A stretch of 64,000 bases of DNA. Origin: Symbiobacterium thermophilum. GTDB lineage: Bacteria; Bacillota; Sulfobacillia; UBA995. The notes under the pieces are model-generated. The model searched no databases. It saw nothing but the letters and a program-made list of their open reading frames with translations, and was not told where the DNA came from. Below are positions 38,302 to 52,665 of the stretch, in pieces (position 1 is the stretch's first letter; every line of letters starts with the position of its first letter). The stretch is taken from positions 46,855 to 110,854 of the forward strand of contig DYFO01000001.1 of NCBI GenBank assembly GCA_020725145.1, written 5' to 3'. Position numbers and translations under genes: made by a program.

Positions 38302-39831
38302 GTGAACCTCGTGGAGCTGGCGGAGGACAACATCCGCCGCTATGGCGAGCACGTGCGGCTGGTCTACAAGGACCGTGACTACACCAACGTGGAGCTGAAC
38401 GCCGACTCCGGGCGGCTGGCGCATGCGCTTGCCGGGTTCGGGGTGATGCCCGGCGACCGCGTGGCCTGCATCACCCTGAACAGCCCCGAGACCTGCATCG
38501 CCTATAACGCGGTCTGGCGAATGGGCGCCGTGCTGGTGCCCATTCTCTTTCTGCTCAACCCGGCGGAGGTGAGCTTCATCCTCCGCGACGCCGAGGCGAA
38601 GGTGGTGCTGGTCGACAGCCTGCTTTATCCCAACTTCGGACCGTGCATCGCTCGGGCGCCCTCGGTCGCCGGCGTGATCCTGGTGGGCACGGACACCGCA
38701 CCGGAAGGAACGGTTGCCTTCCCGGATGCTCTGGCCGGGCGGCCGGACACCTTCCCGGCGTCGGCGGTGGCCGACCACGACCCGGCCGTGCTGCTTTACA
38801 CGTCGGGCACCACCGGCCGGCCCAAGGGGGTGATGCTCTCGCACGCCAACCTGTACGGCAACGCCGTGGCTGCCTCGGAAACGCAGCGGTACACGCGCGA
38901 AGACGTGGCGCTGTTCGTGCTGCCGCTGGCCCACTCCTACGGGCTGACGCTGATGAACGTGGGACAGCTGTACGGAATGAAGGGAGTGCTGCTGCCCTGG
39001 TTCGAAGCCGGCGAGGCCCTGCGCCTGATCGAGAAGCACCGTGTGACCAACCTCGCGGGCGTGCCTACCATGTTCCACATGCTGCTCAATCACCCCGACG
39101 CCGACGTCCGCGACACCTCTTCCCTCAAGCGCTGCACCTCGGGTGCCGCTCCCCTCCCGGTGGAGCTGCTCGAGAGCTTTCAGCGCAAGTTCGACTGCGT
39201 GATCCTGGAAGGCTATGGGCTCAGCGAAGCCTCGCCGGTGGTCACCGCCCACCGTGAGGGCTATCCCCAGAAGCCCGGCTCGGTGGGGCTCCCCCTGCCC
39301 GGGGTGGAGGTCCGCATCGTGGACGACACCGGTGACGCCCTGCCGGTGGGTGAGGTGGGTGAACTGCTGGTACGCGGCCCGAACGTGATGTTGGGCTACT
39401 ACCGCATGCCCCAGGAGACGGCGGAGGCGTTGCGGGGAGGCTGGCTGCACACCGGGGATATGGCCCGCATGGACGAGGACGGTTACCTGTACATCGTCGA
39501 GCGCAAAAAGGACCTCATCATCCGCGGGGGCTTCAACGTCTATCCCCGCGACGTGGAAGAAGTGCTCCTGACCCATCCGGCGGTGGCCGAGGCCGCCGTC
39601 ATCGGCATCCCCGACCCCGTGATGGGGGAGGAGATCAAGGCCTACGTGGTGCTCACCTACGGCGAGCGCGCCGGTGAGGAGGACATCCTGGCGCACTGCC
39701 AAAGGAGCCTGGCCCGCTACAAGTGTCCGCGTGAGATCGAGTTCGTTCCCGCCCTGCCCAAGAACGCCATAGGCAAGGTGCTGCGCAAGGAACTACGGCG
39801 CATGCACGCGGAGAAGGCCCGGACAGCCTGA
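38302..39831 (+). CDS. AMP-forming acyl-CoA synthetase/ligase
   Basis: GTG 38302 follows a GGGGAGGTGG RBS. The AMP-binding motif is YTSGTTGRPKGVMLSH. Confidence 0.8.
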   Translation: MNLVELAEDNIRRYGEHVRLVYKDRDYTNVELNADSGRLAHALAGFGVMPGDRVACITLNSPETCIAYNAVWRMGAVLVPILFLLNPAEVSFILRDAEAKVVLVDSLLYPNFGPCIARAPSVAGVILVGTDTAPEGTVAFPDALAGRPDTFPASAVADHDPAVLLYTSGTTGRPKGVMLSHANLYGNAVAASETQRYTREDVALFVLPLAHSYGLTLMNVGQLYGMKGVLLPWFEAGEALRLIEKHRVTNLAGVPTMFHMLLNHPDADVRDTSSLKRCTSGAAPLPVELLESFQRKFDCVILEGYGLSEASPVVTAHREGYPQKPGSVGLPLPGVEVRIVDDTGDALPVGEVGELLVRGPNVMLGYYRMPQETAEALRGGWLHTGDMARMDEDGYLYIVERKKDLIIRGGFNVYPRDVEEVLLTHPAVAEAAVIGIPDPVMGEEIKAYVVLTYGERAGEEDILAHCQRSLARYKCPREIEFVPALPKNAIGKVLRKELRRMHAEKARTA

Positions 39832-39845
39832 GTCCGGGCCTTCTC
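39811..39845. terminator. Bidirectional rho-independent-type hairpin between convergent genes
   Basis: GAGAAGGCCCGGAC-agcctga-GTCCGGGCCTTCTC is a perfect 14-bp stem. The ligase TGA stop sits in its loop. The convergent MBL gene stops at 39856. Confidence 0.6.
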
Positions 39846-39855
39846 CGCAGATCCA

Positions 39856-40539
39856 CTAGCCCTCGGCGCCGGTAACGGTCAGCACCCAGACCGAGCACCC
39901 CTGGGGAAGTCCGTCCGGTGTCAGTTCCAGCTCGCCTTGCTGGAAGTGACGCACCTCGGGTTTGCCGGCGAGGAACTCGTCCACCGTCGCGATGGGCCAG
40001 TCGGCTATCGCCGGTGTGCGGTAGTGCATGGGCACCACCACCCGTGGGTTGAACAGCCCTGCCACCTGGTCGGCGTCGGCGGCGTCGGCGGTGTACACCC
40101 CGCCCACGGGGAGGAAGAGGACGTCCGGCCGTCCGACGTTGCCGGCCACCGTCCGCGAGGGCACGTGACCCAGGTCGCCCAGGTGAAGCAGTTTCATCTC
40201 CCCCGTCTCCACCAGCCACAAAGCGTTGCGTCCGCGCCGCGCCCCTTCGTCGGCGTCGTGGTAGGTCCCCGGAACCGAGGTCAACCTCACGTCCCCTACT
40301 TCCCGGGAGATCCGCTGCCAGCCGCCGCGGGCGTTCAGTCCCCGGAGCACCAGGGGGTCGCCGCGCACCTCCTTGACGGCGTTGTGGTCGAAATGTTCGT
40401 GGCTGACGGTAACCACGTCCGCGGTTACCTGCGGGGTACCGTAGCCCATGCCGCCGCCGAAGGGGTCGGTGACCACCCTTATTCCCCCGGGCGACGTTAT
40501 CAGGAACATGGCGTGGCCCAGCCAGCGCAGCCGGACCAT
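39856..40539 (-). CDS. Metallo-beta-lactamase-fold metal-dependent hydrolase
   Basis: The translation VTVSHEHFDHN matches the HxHxDH motif. It is a 227-aa protein. Its start overlaps the sbcC stop by 1 nt (TGATG). Confidence 0.7.
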   Translation of the reverse strand: MVRLRWLGHAMFLITSPGGIRVVTDPFGGGMGYGTPQVTADVVTVSHEHFDHNAVKEVRGDPLVLRGLNARGGWQRISREVGDVRLTSVPGTYHDADEGARRGRNALWLVETGEMKLLHLGDLGHVPSRTVAGNVGRPDVLFLPVGGVYTADAADADQVAGLFNPRVVVPMHYRTPAIADWPIATVDEFLAGKPEVRHFQQGELELTPDGLPQGCSVWVLTVTGAEG

Positions 40540-48822: not shown

Positions 48823-49719
48823 GTGCGGGCGGCCATCCATGGGGGGCCCCGCGACCGCCATCCGCGGGGAGAGCTCGGTCTTGCTCCCGAACTCGTGGAG
48901 GTCCTGGGCGGCAGGGGCTTGCGCGGGCTGGTGGCCGCGCTGGACCGGCTGGGCTTTGACCTGTACGGCTTGGCACCCGCTTGCGCGGCCGGTGGCGGCG
49001 ACCCCGCCACCGCGGCGCTGCCCGACGCGGCCGCGCGTGCGGCGCTCGGCCGCCGGGTGAGGAGCCTCCGGGACGCGACCGACTGCTTCCTTTTCGTGGT
49101 GGTTGGCGGGAGCTTCAGCGACCTGGCCGGCGTGATCGGCTGGCCGCGCTTTCTGGGCATGCTGCACCGGGAAGCCCACATGCTGGAAGCCTGGAGCCGC
49201 CGCCGCGCGGGCGTCTGGACCGCCGTGGCCGAGGAGGCTGTAGCGTCCGGTGCCCATGGCGTGGTGATCGCGGACGACCTTGCCCACGCCGCCGGAACCT
49301 TCGCCGACCCCAGAGTGCTGCGGCGCCACTTCTTCCCGGTGCTGGCCGCCATGGTCGCCGCGCTCGGCAGCGTTCCCGTCTTCCTCCACGCCGACGGACG
49401 TCTGGACGCCATCCTTGCCGACATCGAGCAGGCCGGCTTCGCCGGACTGCATCCCCTGGAACCGGCGGCGGGAATGCGCCCGGCCCGCGTGGGTGAGGCC
49501 ACCGGTTGGCGCCTGGCCCTGGCCGGGGGCATCGATCCCCGGGTGTTGACCGCCGGTGGGGTGGAGGCGATGCGGGCCGCGGTGCGCGCCGCCCTGCCGC
49601 CGCCGCCGGCCCGCTACCTGGCCGGGACCGCCTGGGGTTTCCCCGACGCCACGGTGGACCCGCACAGGCTGCTTGAGCTGTACCGGGTGATCGGCGAGGA
49701 GACCGGCAGCTCCGCCTAG
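48823..49719 (+). CDS. Uroporphyrinogen-decarboxylase (URO-D/MtaA-like) family protein
   Basis: It shows a URO-D fold (VVIADDLAHAAGTFADP...VFLHADG). The start is uncertain; GTG 48823 is taken from the ORF track. Confidence 0.45.
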   Translation: MRAAIHGGPRDRHPRGELGLAPELVEVLGGRGLRGLVAALDRLGFDLYGLAPACAAGGGDPATAALPDAAARAALGRRVRSLRDATDCFLFVVVGGSFSDLAGVIGWPRFLGMLHREAHMLEAWSRRRAGVWTAVAEEAVASGAHGVVIADDLAHAAGTFADPRVLRRHFFPVLAAMVAALGSVPVFLHADGRLDAILADIEQAGFAGLHPLEPAAGMRPARVGEATGWRLALAGGIDPRVLTAGGVEAMRAAVRAALPPPPARYLAGTAWGFPDATVDPHRLLELYRVIGEETGSSA

Positions 49720-49845
49720 GAGTGCGTCGGGCAGACCGCGGGCAATGGTTGGCATCAGGAGAGCGGGGCTTGAGGGGACCTCACTTCCCGGGGGGTGTCC
49801 TTCAGCCATGACCGTACCCCGGTGGAGTCTTGTTCATCTGGGAGC

Positions 49846-50238
49846 TCAGGGCAACAGCGTGAGCCCTGGGATTTCATGAAAGTGCCTGCGGTTCATCGTG
49901 AGCAGCGGCAGACGGCGAGCCAGGCAGCAGGCTGCGATCCAAGAATCATTGACGGGTAACGGCTTCCCCATCCGCTCCCTGTCCGCGACCAACTTGCCCC
50001 ACGTGCGGGCCACCTCGATATCGTAGGGAATGACGAGCACCGTCCTGCACCACTGCTCTATCTGAGCGAGCCGCGATTGCCCCCAGGCTTTCTTGTACGC
50101 CCACCTGTACAACTCGCCAACGGTTACGAACGTCACACAAACTGCTCGACCAACAACTGCGTCCCGCAACTCCGGCGGCAGCCGGCCGATCTGGCACCGA
50201 GACGCCGCGTCTGTGTCGAGTACGAGGAAGTCGCACAA
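49846..50238 (-). CDS. vapC: PIN-domain toxin (VapC family)
   Basis: TTG start. The N-terminal acidic pocket is LVLDTDAAS. The conserved PIN motif NDSWIAA is present. GC3 is visibly lower than in neighbouring genes. Confidence 0.7.
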   Translation of the reverse strand: MCDFLVLDTDAASRCQIGRLPPELRDAVVGRAVCVTFVTVGELYRWAYKKAWGQSRLAQIEQWCRTVLVIPYDIEVARTWGKLVADRERMGKPLPVNDSWIAACCLARRLPLLTMNRRHFHEIPGLTLLP

Positions 50239-50239
50239 C

Positions 50240-51187
50240 TTAGCCCACCAGGTCCCGGGAGCGGGAAGCGTACACGTCGGTCAGGAACTCCTCCAGCTCC
50301 TCCTCTGACTCCCAAATGTCTGCGCGCAGACACTCGGCGCTATCAACTGGACGGATAGCTTGAAGGTGAACCAGCTCGTCAAGATCGAGTGGCTTCCAGA
50401 ACGGGTACTCCCCCCAGGCTTCGGCTTCCTCCCAGTCCAGAACCTTAACATCGGTTACCGTAAGCCCCCGGACGCGCCCCGTACTGGGCTCGACCACGGC
50501 TTCACCCGTGACGCGGACGTACTTTGTGAGGGCGTTCAGAATGGCCGATGCCTGGGCTTCGTCGAATATGCACTCTACCGGCGCGCCGATTGGTGGATGG
50601 ACTCGACATCGCCTGCCGGACTCCTTGAAGTCCCCCATCAACAGCCGCCCCTCCACCGATTGCTGGCTGGGCAGAGGACGCGTTATGAGTTGCGCCAGAC
50701 GCTCGATGTGGGGAGGGAGGAGGTTCGCCGCTTTTCCGTTGCCCGGAAGCTCGAACGAGATCTGCTGGGTTCCTCGGCGGAAGAGGGCACCGAGCTCCCG
50801 CACTGCCTCTGCGACGCCGACGTCCCAACCAGCCGGCATTTCCCCCCGGTGCTCGAGCAAGGCGAGTCCTTCCACGAGCACTCTGGCCGCCCGGCAACCA
50901 AGTTCGAGGCTCTGGAAAAGAGGGACCTGCTCGCGCTCGAAATCGAGTTCCAGGATGACGCTCCCGGGGCTCATCCCCACCAGCTGCAGTCGCGTCAGCC
51001 GTTGCACCTCCGCGGGGCGCCGACCAGGCTTCACGCTAGCCTCCCCGCGAAGCACCATGGCCACCCGCTCAAGCGCCGTTTGAAGCGGCTGCAACAAGCC
51101 CACCAGGTCATCCACGCCGATGCGGCCGGCGCCTAAAGCCCGCCCCTCCACTCGCACCCGGATCGAAGCACTGCTACCGAAGTTCAT
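50240..51187 (-). CDS. 315-aa protein of unknown function in the antitoxin position upstream of vapC
   Basis: ATG 51187 follows a GGGGGGG RBS and an AT-rich promoter-like stretch. Its stop lies 1 nt from the vapC start. I recognise no family. An acidic C-terminal tail is present (WESEEELEEFLTDVY). Confidence 0.5.
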   Translation of the reverse strand: MNFGSSASIRVRVEGRALGAGRIGVDDLVGLLQPLQTALERVAMVLRGEASVKPGRRPAEVQRLTRLQLVGMSPGSVILELDFEREQVPLFQSLELGCRAARVLVEGLALLEHRGEMPAGWDVGVAEAVRELGALFRRGTQQISFELPGNGKAANLLPPHIERLAQLITRPLPSQQSVEGRLLMGDFKESGRRCRVHPPIGAPVECIFDEAQASAILNALTKYVRVTGEAVVEPSTGRVRGLTVTDVKVLDWEEAEAWGEYPFWKPLDLDELVHLQAIRPVDSAECLRADIWESEEELEEFLTDVYASRSRDLVG

Positions 51188-51300
51188 CGTCCCCCCCGCT
51201 CTACACCTATTCATTTCTTATTCTATTGTCCATTCTCCTCTAGCTTCATCTACTCCCGTTCTGGAACCTCCGCCGCGTCACGCTGGTGTCGGACGTTCGA
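51188..51300. promoter_or_regulatory. AT-rich promoter-like region plus a 20-bp near-palindrome (GGTGTCGgacgttCGACACC, 51284-51303) in a long divergent intergenic region
   Basis: The stretch from ~51205 to ~51260 (TGGACAATAGAATAAGAAATGAATAGG on the minus strand) is locally AT-rich in a ~70% GC genome. The dyad has 7-bp arms. Confidence 0.35.
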
Positions 51301-51672
51301 CACCCCTCGCCAAAGGATCCAGGCTACCCGGGCGTCAAACCCCGTGATCTCCCCCCATGACGGGAGGATCGCTACCCGCCGGCGGAAATCGAGCGTATCT
51401 TGCGGGCCGCGACGCGGCGCCGGAACCGGAGACGGCGACGCCGTACGCCCGGGCATCCACGAAGAAGCAGGCCGACGCGGGCAACGTGGAACCGCCCTTC
51501 CGGCGCCAGGCACGTGCCACTCCAACCAGGGAGGTGTCGCGCGTTGACGATCCCATCTCCCCGTGCCGTCAGGACCGGTCGCCGCCGGCCCCGTCGCGAC
51601 TGGAGCCGCCGGACCAACCCGCTGCTCGGCGCCAGCGCGTCGCCGTCGATGTCCAGACGTAGCGACAGGCCG

Positions 51673-52665
51673 GTGCGACTGCGTCAGGCCCTGGGCCTTG
51701 CGGCCCTGGGCACGATGATGTTGCTGGGCCTGCGGGCTTTCTTCGTCCCCGCCGTATCCGCGGTGCGGCAGGTGGAGCGGGAGCTCGAGCTGGTGGCGAC
51801 GACCGACTACCGCGTCTGGCCCCGGAGCGGGGTCCTGTACGATTCGGACGCACCTCTGAACGGGCGCGAGGCCTACTTCACGCGGCTTGCCGAACGCGTA
51901 GAGGTCATCTTCCGCTTTGCGGTCACGGGCCGTCCCGAGGTGCCGACGGTCGGGGGACCGGAGCTTTCCCTCACCCTGCGGGCGCCCGGGCTGTGGGAGA
52001 AGGCGCTTGAGGCGCCGCCGGCCTCCGTCCGGCTCGGAGAGCGCGACGTGGAGGTCGTCGCCGTGCTCGAGCCCGCCGCGCTGGCCGAGCTGGTGCGGGC
52101 GATCGTCGCCGAAACGGGAGTGCAGCCGGACACGCCCTGCGAGGCGCGGCTGCTCGCCACCCTGGAGGGCGAGCTTGGGGACACCGGGCTCCAAGCCGTC
52201 ATGCGCTCTCACCTTTGCCTGGTGTTCCGTCCCGACCTCGAGGCTTTTTTGCCACGCTTCGAACCGTCAGGCCGGGTGCGGCAATTCAGCGAAACGGTCG
52301 AGCGGCGCCCCAATCACCTCGCGGTGCTCGGCATGGAGGTAGCGGTGGTGCCCGCCCGCCTGGGCGGGCTGGCAGCATTTGGCCTACTGGTCGCGGGGCT
52401 GGCGGCCGGAAAGCGCCGCCGGCCGTACCGTTCGCCTCCCGCCGCCCGCAAGGTGCGCGGGGCGCTCGCGGTGCGGGGGCTGGCCGCGGAACTCCGCCGG
52501 CTGCCCCGCCTGTACCTGGACGACTTGGACGAACTCGGACGGCTGGCGGACCGGCGCCGCCTGCCGGTGCTGGGGGCCGCCGCCGACGAGCCCCCGCTCT
52601 TTTGTGTGCTGGACGGGGGGATCGCCTACATCTACGTCCCCGATGCCCGGCCGCGCGACGGCTAG
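51673..52665 (+). CDS. Hypothetical membrane protein (two predicted TM segments)
   Basis: GTG 51673 gives MRLRQALGLAALGTMMLLGLRAFF.... A second TM is LAAFGLLVAGLAAG. The upstream in-frame extension to 51400 is Arg-rich with poor GC3 and is rejected. ATG 51649 is an alternative start. Confidence 0.45.
   Translation: MRLRQALGLAALGTMMLLGLRAFFVPAVSAVRQVERELELVATTDYRVWPRSGVLYDSDAPLNGREAYFTRLAERVEVIFRFAVTGRPEVPTVGGPELSLTLRAPGLWEKALEAPPASVRLGERDVEVVAVLEPAALAELVRAIVAETGVQPDTPCEARLLATLEGELGDTGLQAVMRSHLCLVFRPDLEAFLPRFEPSGRVRQFSETVERRPNHLAVLGMEVAVVPARLGGLAAFGLLVAGLAAGKRRRPYRSPPAARKVRGALAVRGLAAELRRLPRLYLDDLDELGRLADRRRLPVLGAAADEPPLFCVLDGGIAYIYVPDARPRDG

Follow-up and report, generated by a model that had tools for sequence, protein, structure and literature searches.

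A VapC-type PIN gene of Symbiobacterium thermophilum paired with a large, three-part putative antitoxin whose relatives occur in restriction-modification and BREX operons

We analyzed a 64,000-nucleotide stretch of Symbiobacterium thermophilum DNA (assembly GCA_020725145.1, contig DYFO01000001.1, positions 46,855 to 110,854 of the forward strand; hereafter the window) and in it a pair of adjacent minus-strand genes. The first, gene A, encodes a 315-residue protein, and the second, gene B, encodes a 130-residue PIN-domain protein. Our analyses make it fairly likely that this cassette is a bicistronic, translationally coupled toxin-antitoxin (TA)-like module, composed of a VapC-type PIN ribonuclease (RNase) and a large modular antitoxin whose tail would neutralize the toxin and whose body would bind a ligand, with a role in abortive infection or as a backup to other defenses. 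The evidence that carries this reading is that relatives of gene A are followed by a PIN gene almost throughout the family, that their C-terminal tails are swapped together with the type of toxin, and that they are often embedded in defense operons.

A preliminary description of this DNA, made from its letters and open reading frames (ORFs), had reported a 315-residue ORF separated from a PIN gene by 1 nt, and the positions of the ORFs and of their stop and start codons confirmed this arrangement. Gene A (50240–51187, minus strand) ends with a TAA at 50240–50242, which is followed by the single base 50239 and then by the TTG start codon of gene B at 50238 (gene B, 49846–50238, minus strand). 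The first ATG of the gene A ORF is at 51214 and would give an alternative form of 324 residues (50240–51214, minus strand). Public gene calls (NCBI, JGI, and Logan) contained the 315-residue protein and not the 324-residue form, and the alignment of gene A with its homologs begins at the second methionine (ATG 51187).

The identification of gene B as a PIN-domain protein was supported by its match to Pfam PF01850 (E = 4.4e-9, 37.4 bits, cut-off 23.6). Its closest solved relatives in the PDB were tRNA(fMet)-specific VapCs (E about 3e-9). The catalytic residues D8, E42, and D98 are all present in gene B. A histidine, H119 (codon 49882–49884, minus strand), stands at the fourth acidic position of the active site, which is E119 in Shigella VapC. 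In the PIN proteins partnered with gene A homologs, D8, E42, and D98 were kept in 74–75 of 75 sequences, so that the toxin is under selection, and position 119 was an aspartate in 51 of the 75 and a histidine in 23. The scores of gene B against the NCBIfam VapC models NF047863 and NF010285 (45.1 and 38.3 bits) were far under the respective cut-offs of 140 and 143. The gene B protein is basic, with an isoelectric point (pI) of 9.1.

The gene A protein of the window, searched against Pfam, NCBIfam, PADLOC, and PHROG and, by sequence or by profile, against the PDB, matched no entry, in agreement with the earlier statement that this ORF could be placed in no known family. A word-indexed search retrieved only 19 relatives, every one of 260–330 residues. 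With E ≤ 1e-3 the full profile search recovered 2,616 clusters, and with E ≤ 1e-30 it recovered 233; most were of equal length and covered end to end. Full-length homologs with 36–55% identity to gene A were present in many phyla and had conserved columns over the entire length of the protein. When 103 diverse members of the family were compared with Pfam, none had a convincing domain, and RHH, HTH, AbrB, Phd, and DUF4065 were all absent. The protein did not, therefore, prove to be a fusion of a standard RHH or VapB antitoxin with a housekeeping domain, an alternative that the preliminary description had raised.

When one genome per species was scanned, 107 relatives of gene A were identified, of which 80 loci were kept, all of them in metagenome-assembled genomes (MAGs). 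The phyla represented among these 80 loci included Actinomycetota, Acidobacteriota, Desulfobacterota, Planctomycetota, Verrucomicrobiota, Proteobacteria, Nitrospirota, Spirochaetota, Bacillota, Armatimonadota, and Gemmatimonadota, and the distribution of the family looks patchy, resembling that produced by horizontal transfer. Full-length gene A was not found among the IMG/VR viral contigs, and tblastn with three different family members as queries recovered none from PLSDB plasmids or INPHARED phages. Public annotations of several MAGs gave only a 59–84-residue C-terminal fragment of the protein (L043, 10739–10966; L055, 10790–10966; L075, 10715–10966; L087, 10715–10954), and these fragments were internal starts inside full-length gene A ORFs. 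Because several MAGs had only the C-terminal fragment called, the gene A family is under-annotated in databases.

The linkage of gene A to a PIN gene was found across the family. Gene A was directly followed by a PIN gene in each of the seven first contexts, in 72 of 73 loci when PIN genes were identified with Pfam, and in 84 of 90 loci when they were identified with a hidden Markov model built from the Pfam-verified partners. Among those 90, the loci in which no PIN gene followed comprised two unresolved ones, one with ParE, and others at contig ends. A full-length gene A and a PIN gene occurred together in 59 of 80 loci of a separate metagenome sample. The usual junction between the two genes among the homologs was a 4-nt overlap, and no third gene was conserved at every locus.

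Structure prediction indicated that the gene A protein has three parts. The AlphaFold2 model of the whole protein had a predicted local distance difference test score (pLDDT) of 77, and the model of residues 1–172, made with a 103-sequence alignment, had a pLDDT of 92 and a predicted template modeling score of 0.88. The N-terminal domain (residues 1–170; 50678–51187, minus strand) is predicted to be an alpha/beta domain with ferredoxin/RRM-like topology and has a conserved basic loop, S-x-R-x-G-R-x-P, at residues 51–58. It is followed by a predicted OB-fold domain (residues 171–250; 50438–50677, minus strand) with the family signature EGRLLMADFKE..RCRVHP..G.PV.C.F., whose strands beta1 and beta2 bear conserved basic and aromatic residues and whose structure matches included the anticodon-binding domains of tRNA synthetases. 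Three clusters of conserved residues were recognized in the protein, namely the S-x-R-x-G-R-x-P loop, an L-P-x-G-x-D-x-G-V-L segment, and OB strands beta1–beta3. The third part is the acidic C-terminal tail that had been noticed in the preliminary description (residues 263–315; 50243–50401, minus strand; pattern FW..L.EL...Q...P......L....WE..EE...F......R.), a putative PIN-neutralizing linear element. Its pI is 4.2, it contains 14 aspartates and glutamates versus 5 lysines and arginines, and the median net charge of the tail in the family is -7. In the monomer model the tail was built as helices of low pLDDT.

The earlier suggestion that gene A might have HEPN-like chemistry was not upheld. 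The sequence GRRCRVH, with its R-x4-H motif, does exist, but its leading arginine is not conserved (the R192 column contained L in 31, R in 13, T in 12, and P in 8 of the 103 members), the motif lies in an OB strand (193–197) and not in a HEPN helix, and there was no HEPN match in Pfam. We therefore rejected a HEPN RNase identity for gene A. The same region contains cysteines on adjacent OB strands (RCRVHP...VEC, about 50570–50608), C194 being present in 75 and C206 in 100 of the 103 members, along with H197 in 60 of the 103; C194 and C206 could be a candidate metal or redox site.

A Foldseek search of BFVD with the gene A model matched a 381-residue protein of the Leptospira phage LE1, Q6NE06 (E = 1e-7). 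This candidate was rejected and not used, as hhalign showed no sequence similarity (probability 0.5%). In the region 38735–40413 of the phage sequence (L103, BX571876), LE1-0037 adjoins a DUF4365 gene; it is the only 381-residue coding sequence in the first 50 kb and was equated with Q6NE06 by its length only. The same search also matched a phage protein of the DUF6575 family.

The relationship of the tail to the toxin became apparent on comparison of family members with different downstream genes. The tail type found in the window was present in 139 of 166 listed family members. In P0131, the N-terminal domain and OB body were kept with another C-terminus, and the gene was upstream of a ParE/RelE gene. 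The body was likewise kept with other tails in P0098, which is upstream of a PemK/MazF gene and just downstream of an HsdS gene, and in P0118, which is upstream of a Fic/Doc gene. A third tail type was found in P0120, upstream of another PIN gene. A profile of the tail by itself identified 562 small proteins of 58–117 residues, none with a Pfam domain. Part of these were internal-start miscalls within full-length A genes, and others were genuine. For instance, P0187 (94 residues, with a small N-terminal domain and the tail; L097) is encoded directly upstream of a 138-residue PIN gene, and in the metagenome sample five further short tail proteins adjoined PIN genes. Since the body with other tails is paired with other toxins and the tail alone adjoins PIN genes, the body is independent of the toxin and the tail tracks it. 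This pattern of co-occurrence points to the tail as the likely toxin-neutralizing element.

The tail was also found on its own, in DNA resembling that of phages. In the metagenome sample, 13 of 21 short tail genes were orphans that lacked a PIN gene within 4 kb. The neighbors at four orphan loci that we examined matched the PHROG families of terminase small subunit, tail fiber, and phage regulator. The free-standing tail protein P0170 was found in 22 contigs, and at five of these loci, which were read, it lay amid ASCH, MBL-fold, DnaC-like, and RusA genes. In addition, three IMG/VR contigs carried a free-standing tail protein. Free-standing tail ORFs of 58–163 residues, in phage-like blocks and without a PIN gene within 4 kb, were located at L092–L096 (about 2501–2692), L098 (3887–4171), L099 (3923–4156), L100 (3962–4189), L136, L167, L171, and L181–L183, and their neighbors included RusA, DnaC/DnaB-like, terminase small subunit, and tail fiber genes. 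The orphan tails in phage-like contigs would fit a phage counter-measure, and we regard them as candidate phage-encoded antitoxin mimics (anti-defense) directed against this PIN clade.

The same two-gene cassette, for which the preliminary description had pointed to the defense islands of other genomes, was found in BREX, Hma, and restriction-modification (RM) operons of relatives. At L003, the A–PIN pair is inserted in a type 1 BREX system, with PglX on one side and PglZ on the other. At L001, L005, L006, L009, and L023, the pair is between or beside genes for a DUF1156 methylase, a DUF499 ATPase, and an SNF2 helicase (“Hma”, or BREX-related). Of the 65 genome loci with 8 kb or more of sequence, 24 had RM genes of type I (HsdM/HsdR) or of a type III-like kind (N6_N4 methylase and ResIII) within 10 kb, nearly always on the same strand. 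At some loci, the RM or BREX-type methylase gene ends only 4–13 nt before gene A. For these analyses, neighboring genes were clustered and then compared with Pfam, and single-sequence phmmer seeds for BREX and Hma genes found few neighbors among the 80 loci. Other relatives were, like the window copy, amid housekeeping genes. One such site, conserved within a lineage, is between CoA-transferase/enoyl-CoA hydratase (ECH) and ABC-transporter genes and was occupied at L007, L020, L037, L048, L052, and L091. Embedded cassettes have been described as a rich source of defense systems (10.1101/2024.01.29.577857), and among the backup effectors of BREX loci, PIN endoRNases are noted as a rarer type (PMC12839542).

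Some of these host loci contained additional genes of interest. The BREX type 1 locus of L003 (2966–5902) also holds an MNT/HEPN pair and a 730-residue protein without a Pfam match between PglX and PglZ; as these share the locus with the A–PIN pair, several accessory modules are stacked in the one operon. Hma-like host loci (L009, 6470–7582; L006, 1–2927) were flanked by genes for a RES-domain protein, an AAA_13/SMC_N ATPase, and a DUF1016/YhcG nuclease-like protein.

Comparison with PADLOC showed that 31 of the 103 relatives matched the PDC-M32A model weakly (best E = 1.2e-11) and six matched PDC-M63B; the gene A and PIN proteins of the window gave no match at E ≤ 1. PDC-M32 is a candidate phage-defense cassette of two genes (CAS_00128), recorded 98 times inside BREX, DISARM, or RM systems (10.1101/2024.01.29.577857, Table S8). 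The candidates PDC-M32 and PDC-M63 (Payne et al., same preprint) resemble the A–PIN cassette in consisting of two genes and lying within RM or BREX-type operons. By sequence, gene A of the window is at most a remote homolog of PDC-M32A, and the mining of defense islands has touched its family via remote relatives. Our findings thus bear on the proposal in the preliminary description of a novel three-domain antitoxin or defense module, as the three-part protein, the conserved PIN pairing, and the defense context were all in its favor and the word novel has to be qualified by the weak PDC-M32A matches. In the literature that could be searched, we found no description of the gene A architecture or of its promiscuity toward toxins.

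From these data we infer the following sequence of events. Gene B would be an active VapC-type PIN ribonuclease, and the acidic, probably disordered tail of about 55 residues would bind the basic PIN protein and block it, which may be termed linear neutralization. The body of about 250 residues, RRM-like plus OB and independent of the toxin, would most likely bind nucleic acid in single-stranded form or some other ligand associated with infection, and this binding would control the release, exposure, or engagement of the tail or the turnover of the antitoxin. Infection, or failure of the surrounding RM or BREX system, would then free the toxin and lead to abortive infection. A bolder version of this proposal, which we consider possible though doubtful, is that the body is a Panacea-like universal platform that guards RM, BREX, and Hma systems, senses phage single-stranded DNA or RNA or an anti-restriction factor, and frees a tethered PIN, ParE/RelE, MazF, or Doc toxin, with the tail copies of phages serving to re-neutralize PIN.

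The main rival takes the cassette for an ordinary addiction module of the type II TA class, without a role in defense; the body would be an unusual dimerization and operator-binding domain with an autoregulatory function, and the whole a selfish element that stabilizes its host island. We regard this as rather unlikely. In its favor, the copy in the window has the atypical composition and the position amid housekeeping genes of a mobile selfish cassette, and a lineage-conserved copy is between CoA-transferase/ECH and ABC-transporter genes. A further point in its favor is the statistically rare 20-bp palindrome (described below) that precedes gene A by about 100 nt, and TA modules are generally enriched in RM islands and are not necessarily defensive there. 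Against an addiction module, no known dsDNA-binding antitoxin fold was detected in gene A, the embedded copies that follow a methylase gene so closely have therefore no room for an operator of their own, and the orphan tails in phage-like contigs are hard to explain without a phage–host conflict. Some of the observations weigh directly against the defensive module that we favor. The window copy is outside any defense island and is not between BREX, Hma, or RM core genes, and here it may be nothing more than a selfish addiction module; the upstream palindrome would suit classical operator autoregulation; and the gene A protein of the window fits no PADLOC model. The related PADLOC candidate PDC-M63AB was without a defense phenotype in E. 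coli NILS69. In addition, the window PIN has H119 for the fourth acidic residue, like the 23 partner proteins noted above, and the binding of the tail to PIN is deduced from their co-occurrence only.

A different possibility is that gene A is a subunit that delivers RNA (e.g., tRNA) to, or activates, a constitutive two-subunit RNase for processing or quality control. RNA binding is typical of modules with RRM-like and OB folds, the matches of the OB part to tRNA-synthetase anticodon-binding domains would suit such a subunit, and the nearest solved PIN proteins cleave tRNA(fMet). However, the same body is paired with ParE/RelE, MazF, and Fic/Doc, whose targets are unrelated, and the tail by itself is paired with PIN. 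The patchy, horizontal-looking distribution and the embedding of homologs in defense operons also speak against a constitutive RNase, which we consider very improbable. Long spurious ORFs are abundant in high-GC DNA, and the 315-residue ORF might on that account have been a gene-calling artifact beside an orphan PIN gene. The full-length homologs in many phyla, the confident fold prediction, and the conserved synteny with PIN refuted this explanation, to which we give practically no credence.

The TA-like module that we favor shares several features with VapBC systems. Both have a PIN toxin with a D-E-D core and an antitoxin gene that is directly upstream, co-directional, and translationally coupled, and in both an acidic C-terminal segment of the antitoxin is likely to be neutralizing; a tail of the gene A type was also found on VapB-sized proteins beside PIN genes. 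In contrast, gene A encodes 315 residues versus about 70–90 for VapB, and neither the window protein nor the 103 relatives had an RHH, AbrB/SpoVT, HTH, or Phd/YefM dsDNA-binding domain, their predicted folds being ferredoxin/RRM-like and OB. Gene B also differed in being under the cut-offs of the NCBIfam VapC equivalogs (45 versus 140 bits).

The multidomain antitoxins of the Panacea family (PanA, DUF4065) have exchangeable linear neutralizing elements, and a sensory role has been proposed for their globular domain (PMC10440598). Gene A is like PanA in having one globular platform, varied toxin-specific terminal elements, and partners from unrelated toxin superfamilies, and this likeness is functional only. 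DUF4065 was not present in the 103 gene A members, whose fold is RRM-like plus OB, and the gene A family is known from sequences and models. With respect to their surroundings, gene A homologs resemble the accessory or backup effectors found within BREX, Hma, or type I RM loci, such as HEC-03 (ABC-ATPase and PIN) and the PIN, HEPN, and Schlafen backup RNases (PMC12839542), in that a PIN cassette is inserted among the core genes of BREX type 1, DUF499/DUF1156/SNF2, and type I or III RM systems. They differ from HEC-03 in that the partner of PIN is an RRM-like/OB/tail protein and not the ABC ATPase HEC-03A, and in that the window copy is not embedded.

If our proposal is correct, the gene A family would stand beside Panacea as a second large antitoxin platform that is toxin-agnostic, this one derived from nucleic-acid-binding folds, and would provide a handle on the sensing of phage infection by type II TA modules. 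That the cassette is so often nested in RM, BREX, and Hma operons suggests defenses arranged in layers, one backing up another, and the orphan tails of phage-like contigs suggest a simple and transferable anti-defense strategy. Current censuses of defense systems miss the family because Pfam, NCBIfam, and PHROGs fail to detect it (PADLOC, too, misses the window protein) and it comes almost only from uncultured lineages.

The composition of the cassette sets it apart from its surroundings in the window. The GC content at third codon positions was 0.74–0.76 in the pair versus 0.82–0.87 in six neighboring genes, which corroborated the difference and the horizontal acquisition put forward in the preliminary description. 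The A–B pair is moreover the lowest-GC 1.4-kb stretch of the window (0.629 versus a mean of 0.688, standard deviation 0.022), in the lowest 0.5% of such windows. This atypical composition supports the horizontal acquisition of the pair. The genes around it were those for an Obg-like GTPase, a PpiC/SurA protein, a URO-D-like protein, an M24 peptidase, and a DinB protein; as these neighbors are housekeeping genes, the cassette is solitary in this genome. No tRNA or Rfam element was found in the window.

The intergenic region upstream of gene A (51188–51400) is divergent from the next ORF and contains both a low-GC stretch and the palindrome mentioned above. The AT-rich, promoter-like stretch of the preliminary description could be confirmed in part. 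The 51 nt upstream of the gene A ORF (51215–51265) have a GC content of 41%, and a -10-like TAGAAT is visible within them by eye only. A sigma-70 consensus scan and a terminator scan of 49600–51600 found no site, so that the promoter itself was not corroborated. The 20-bp palindrome GGTGTCGAAC/GTCCGACACC is at 51285–51304. It was reached in 1.5% of shuffles, and seven such palindromes occur in the 64 kb of the window; it may be a candidate operator of the A–B operon or of the divergent gene. The divergent ORF (51400–52665, plus strand; 421 residues), a possible gene in this high-GC DNA, gave no match in Pfam, and it overlaps the region in which the M24 peptidase ORF starts.

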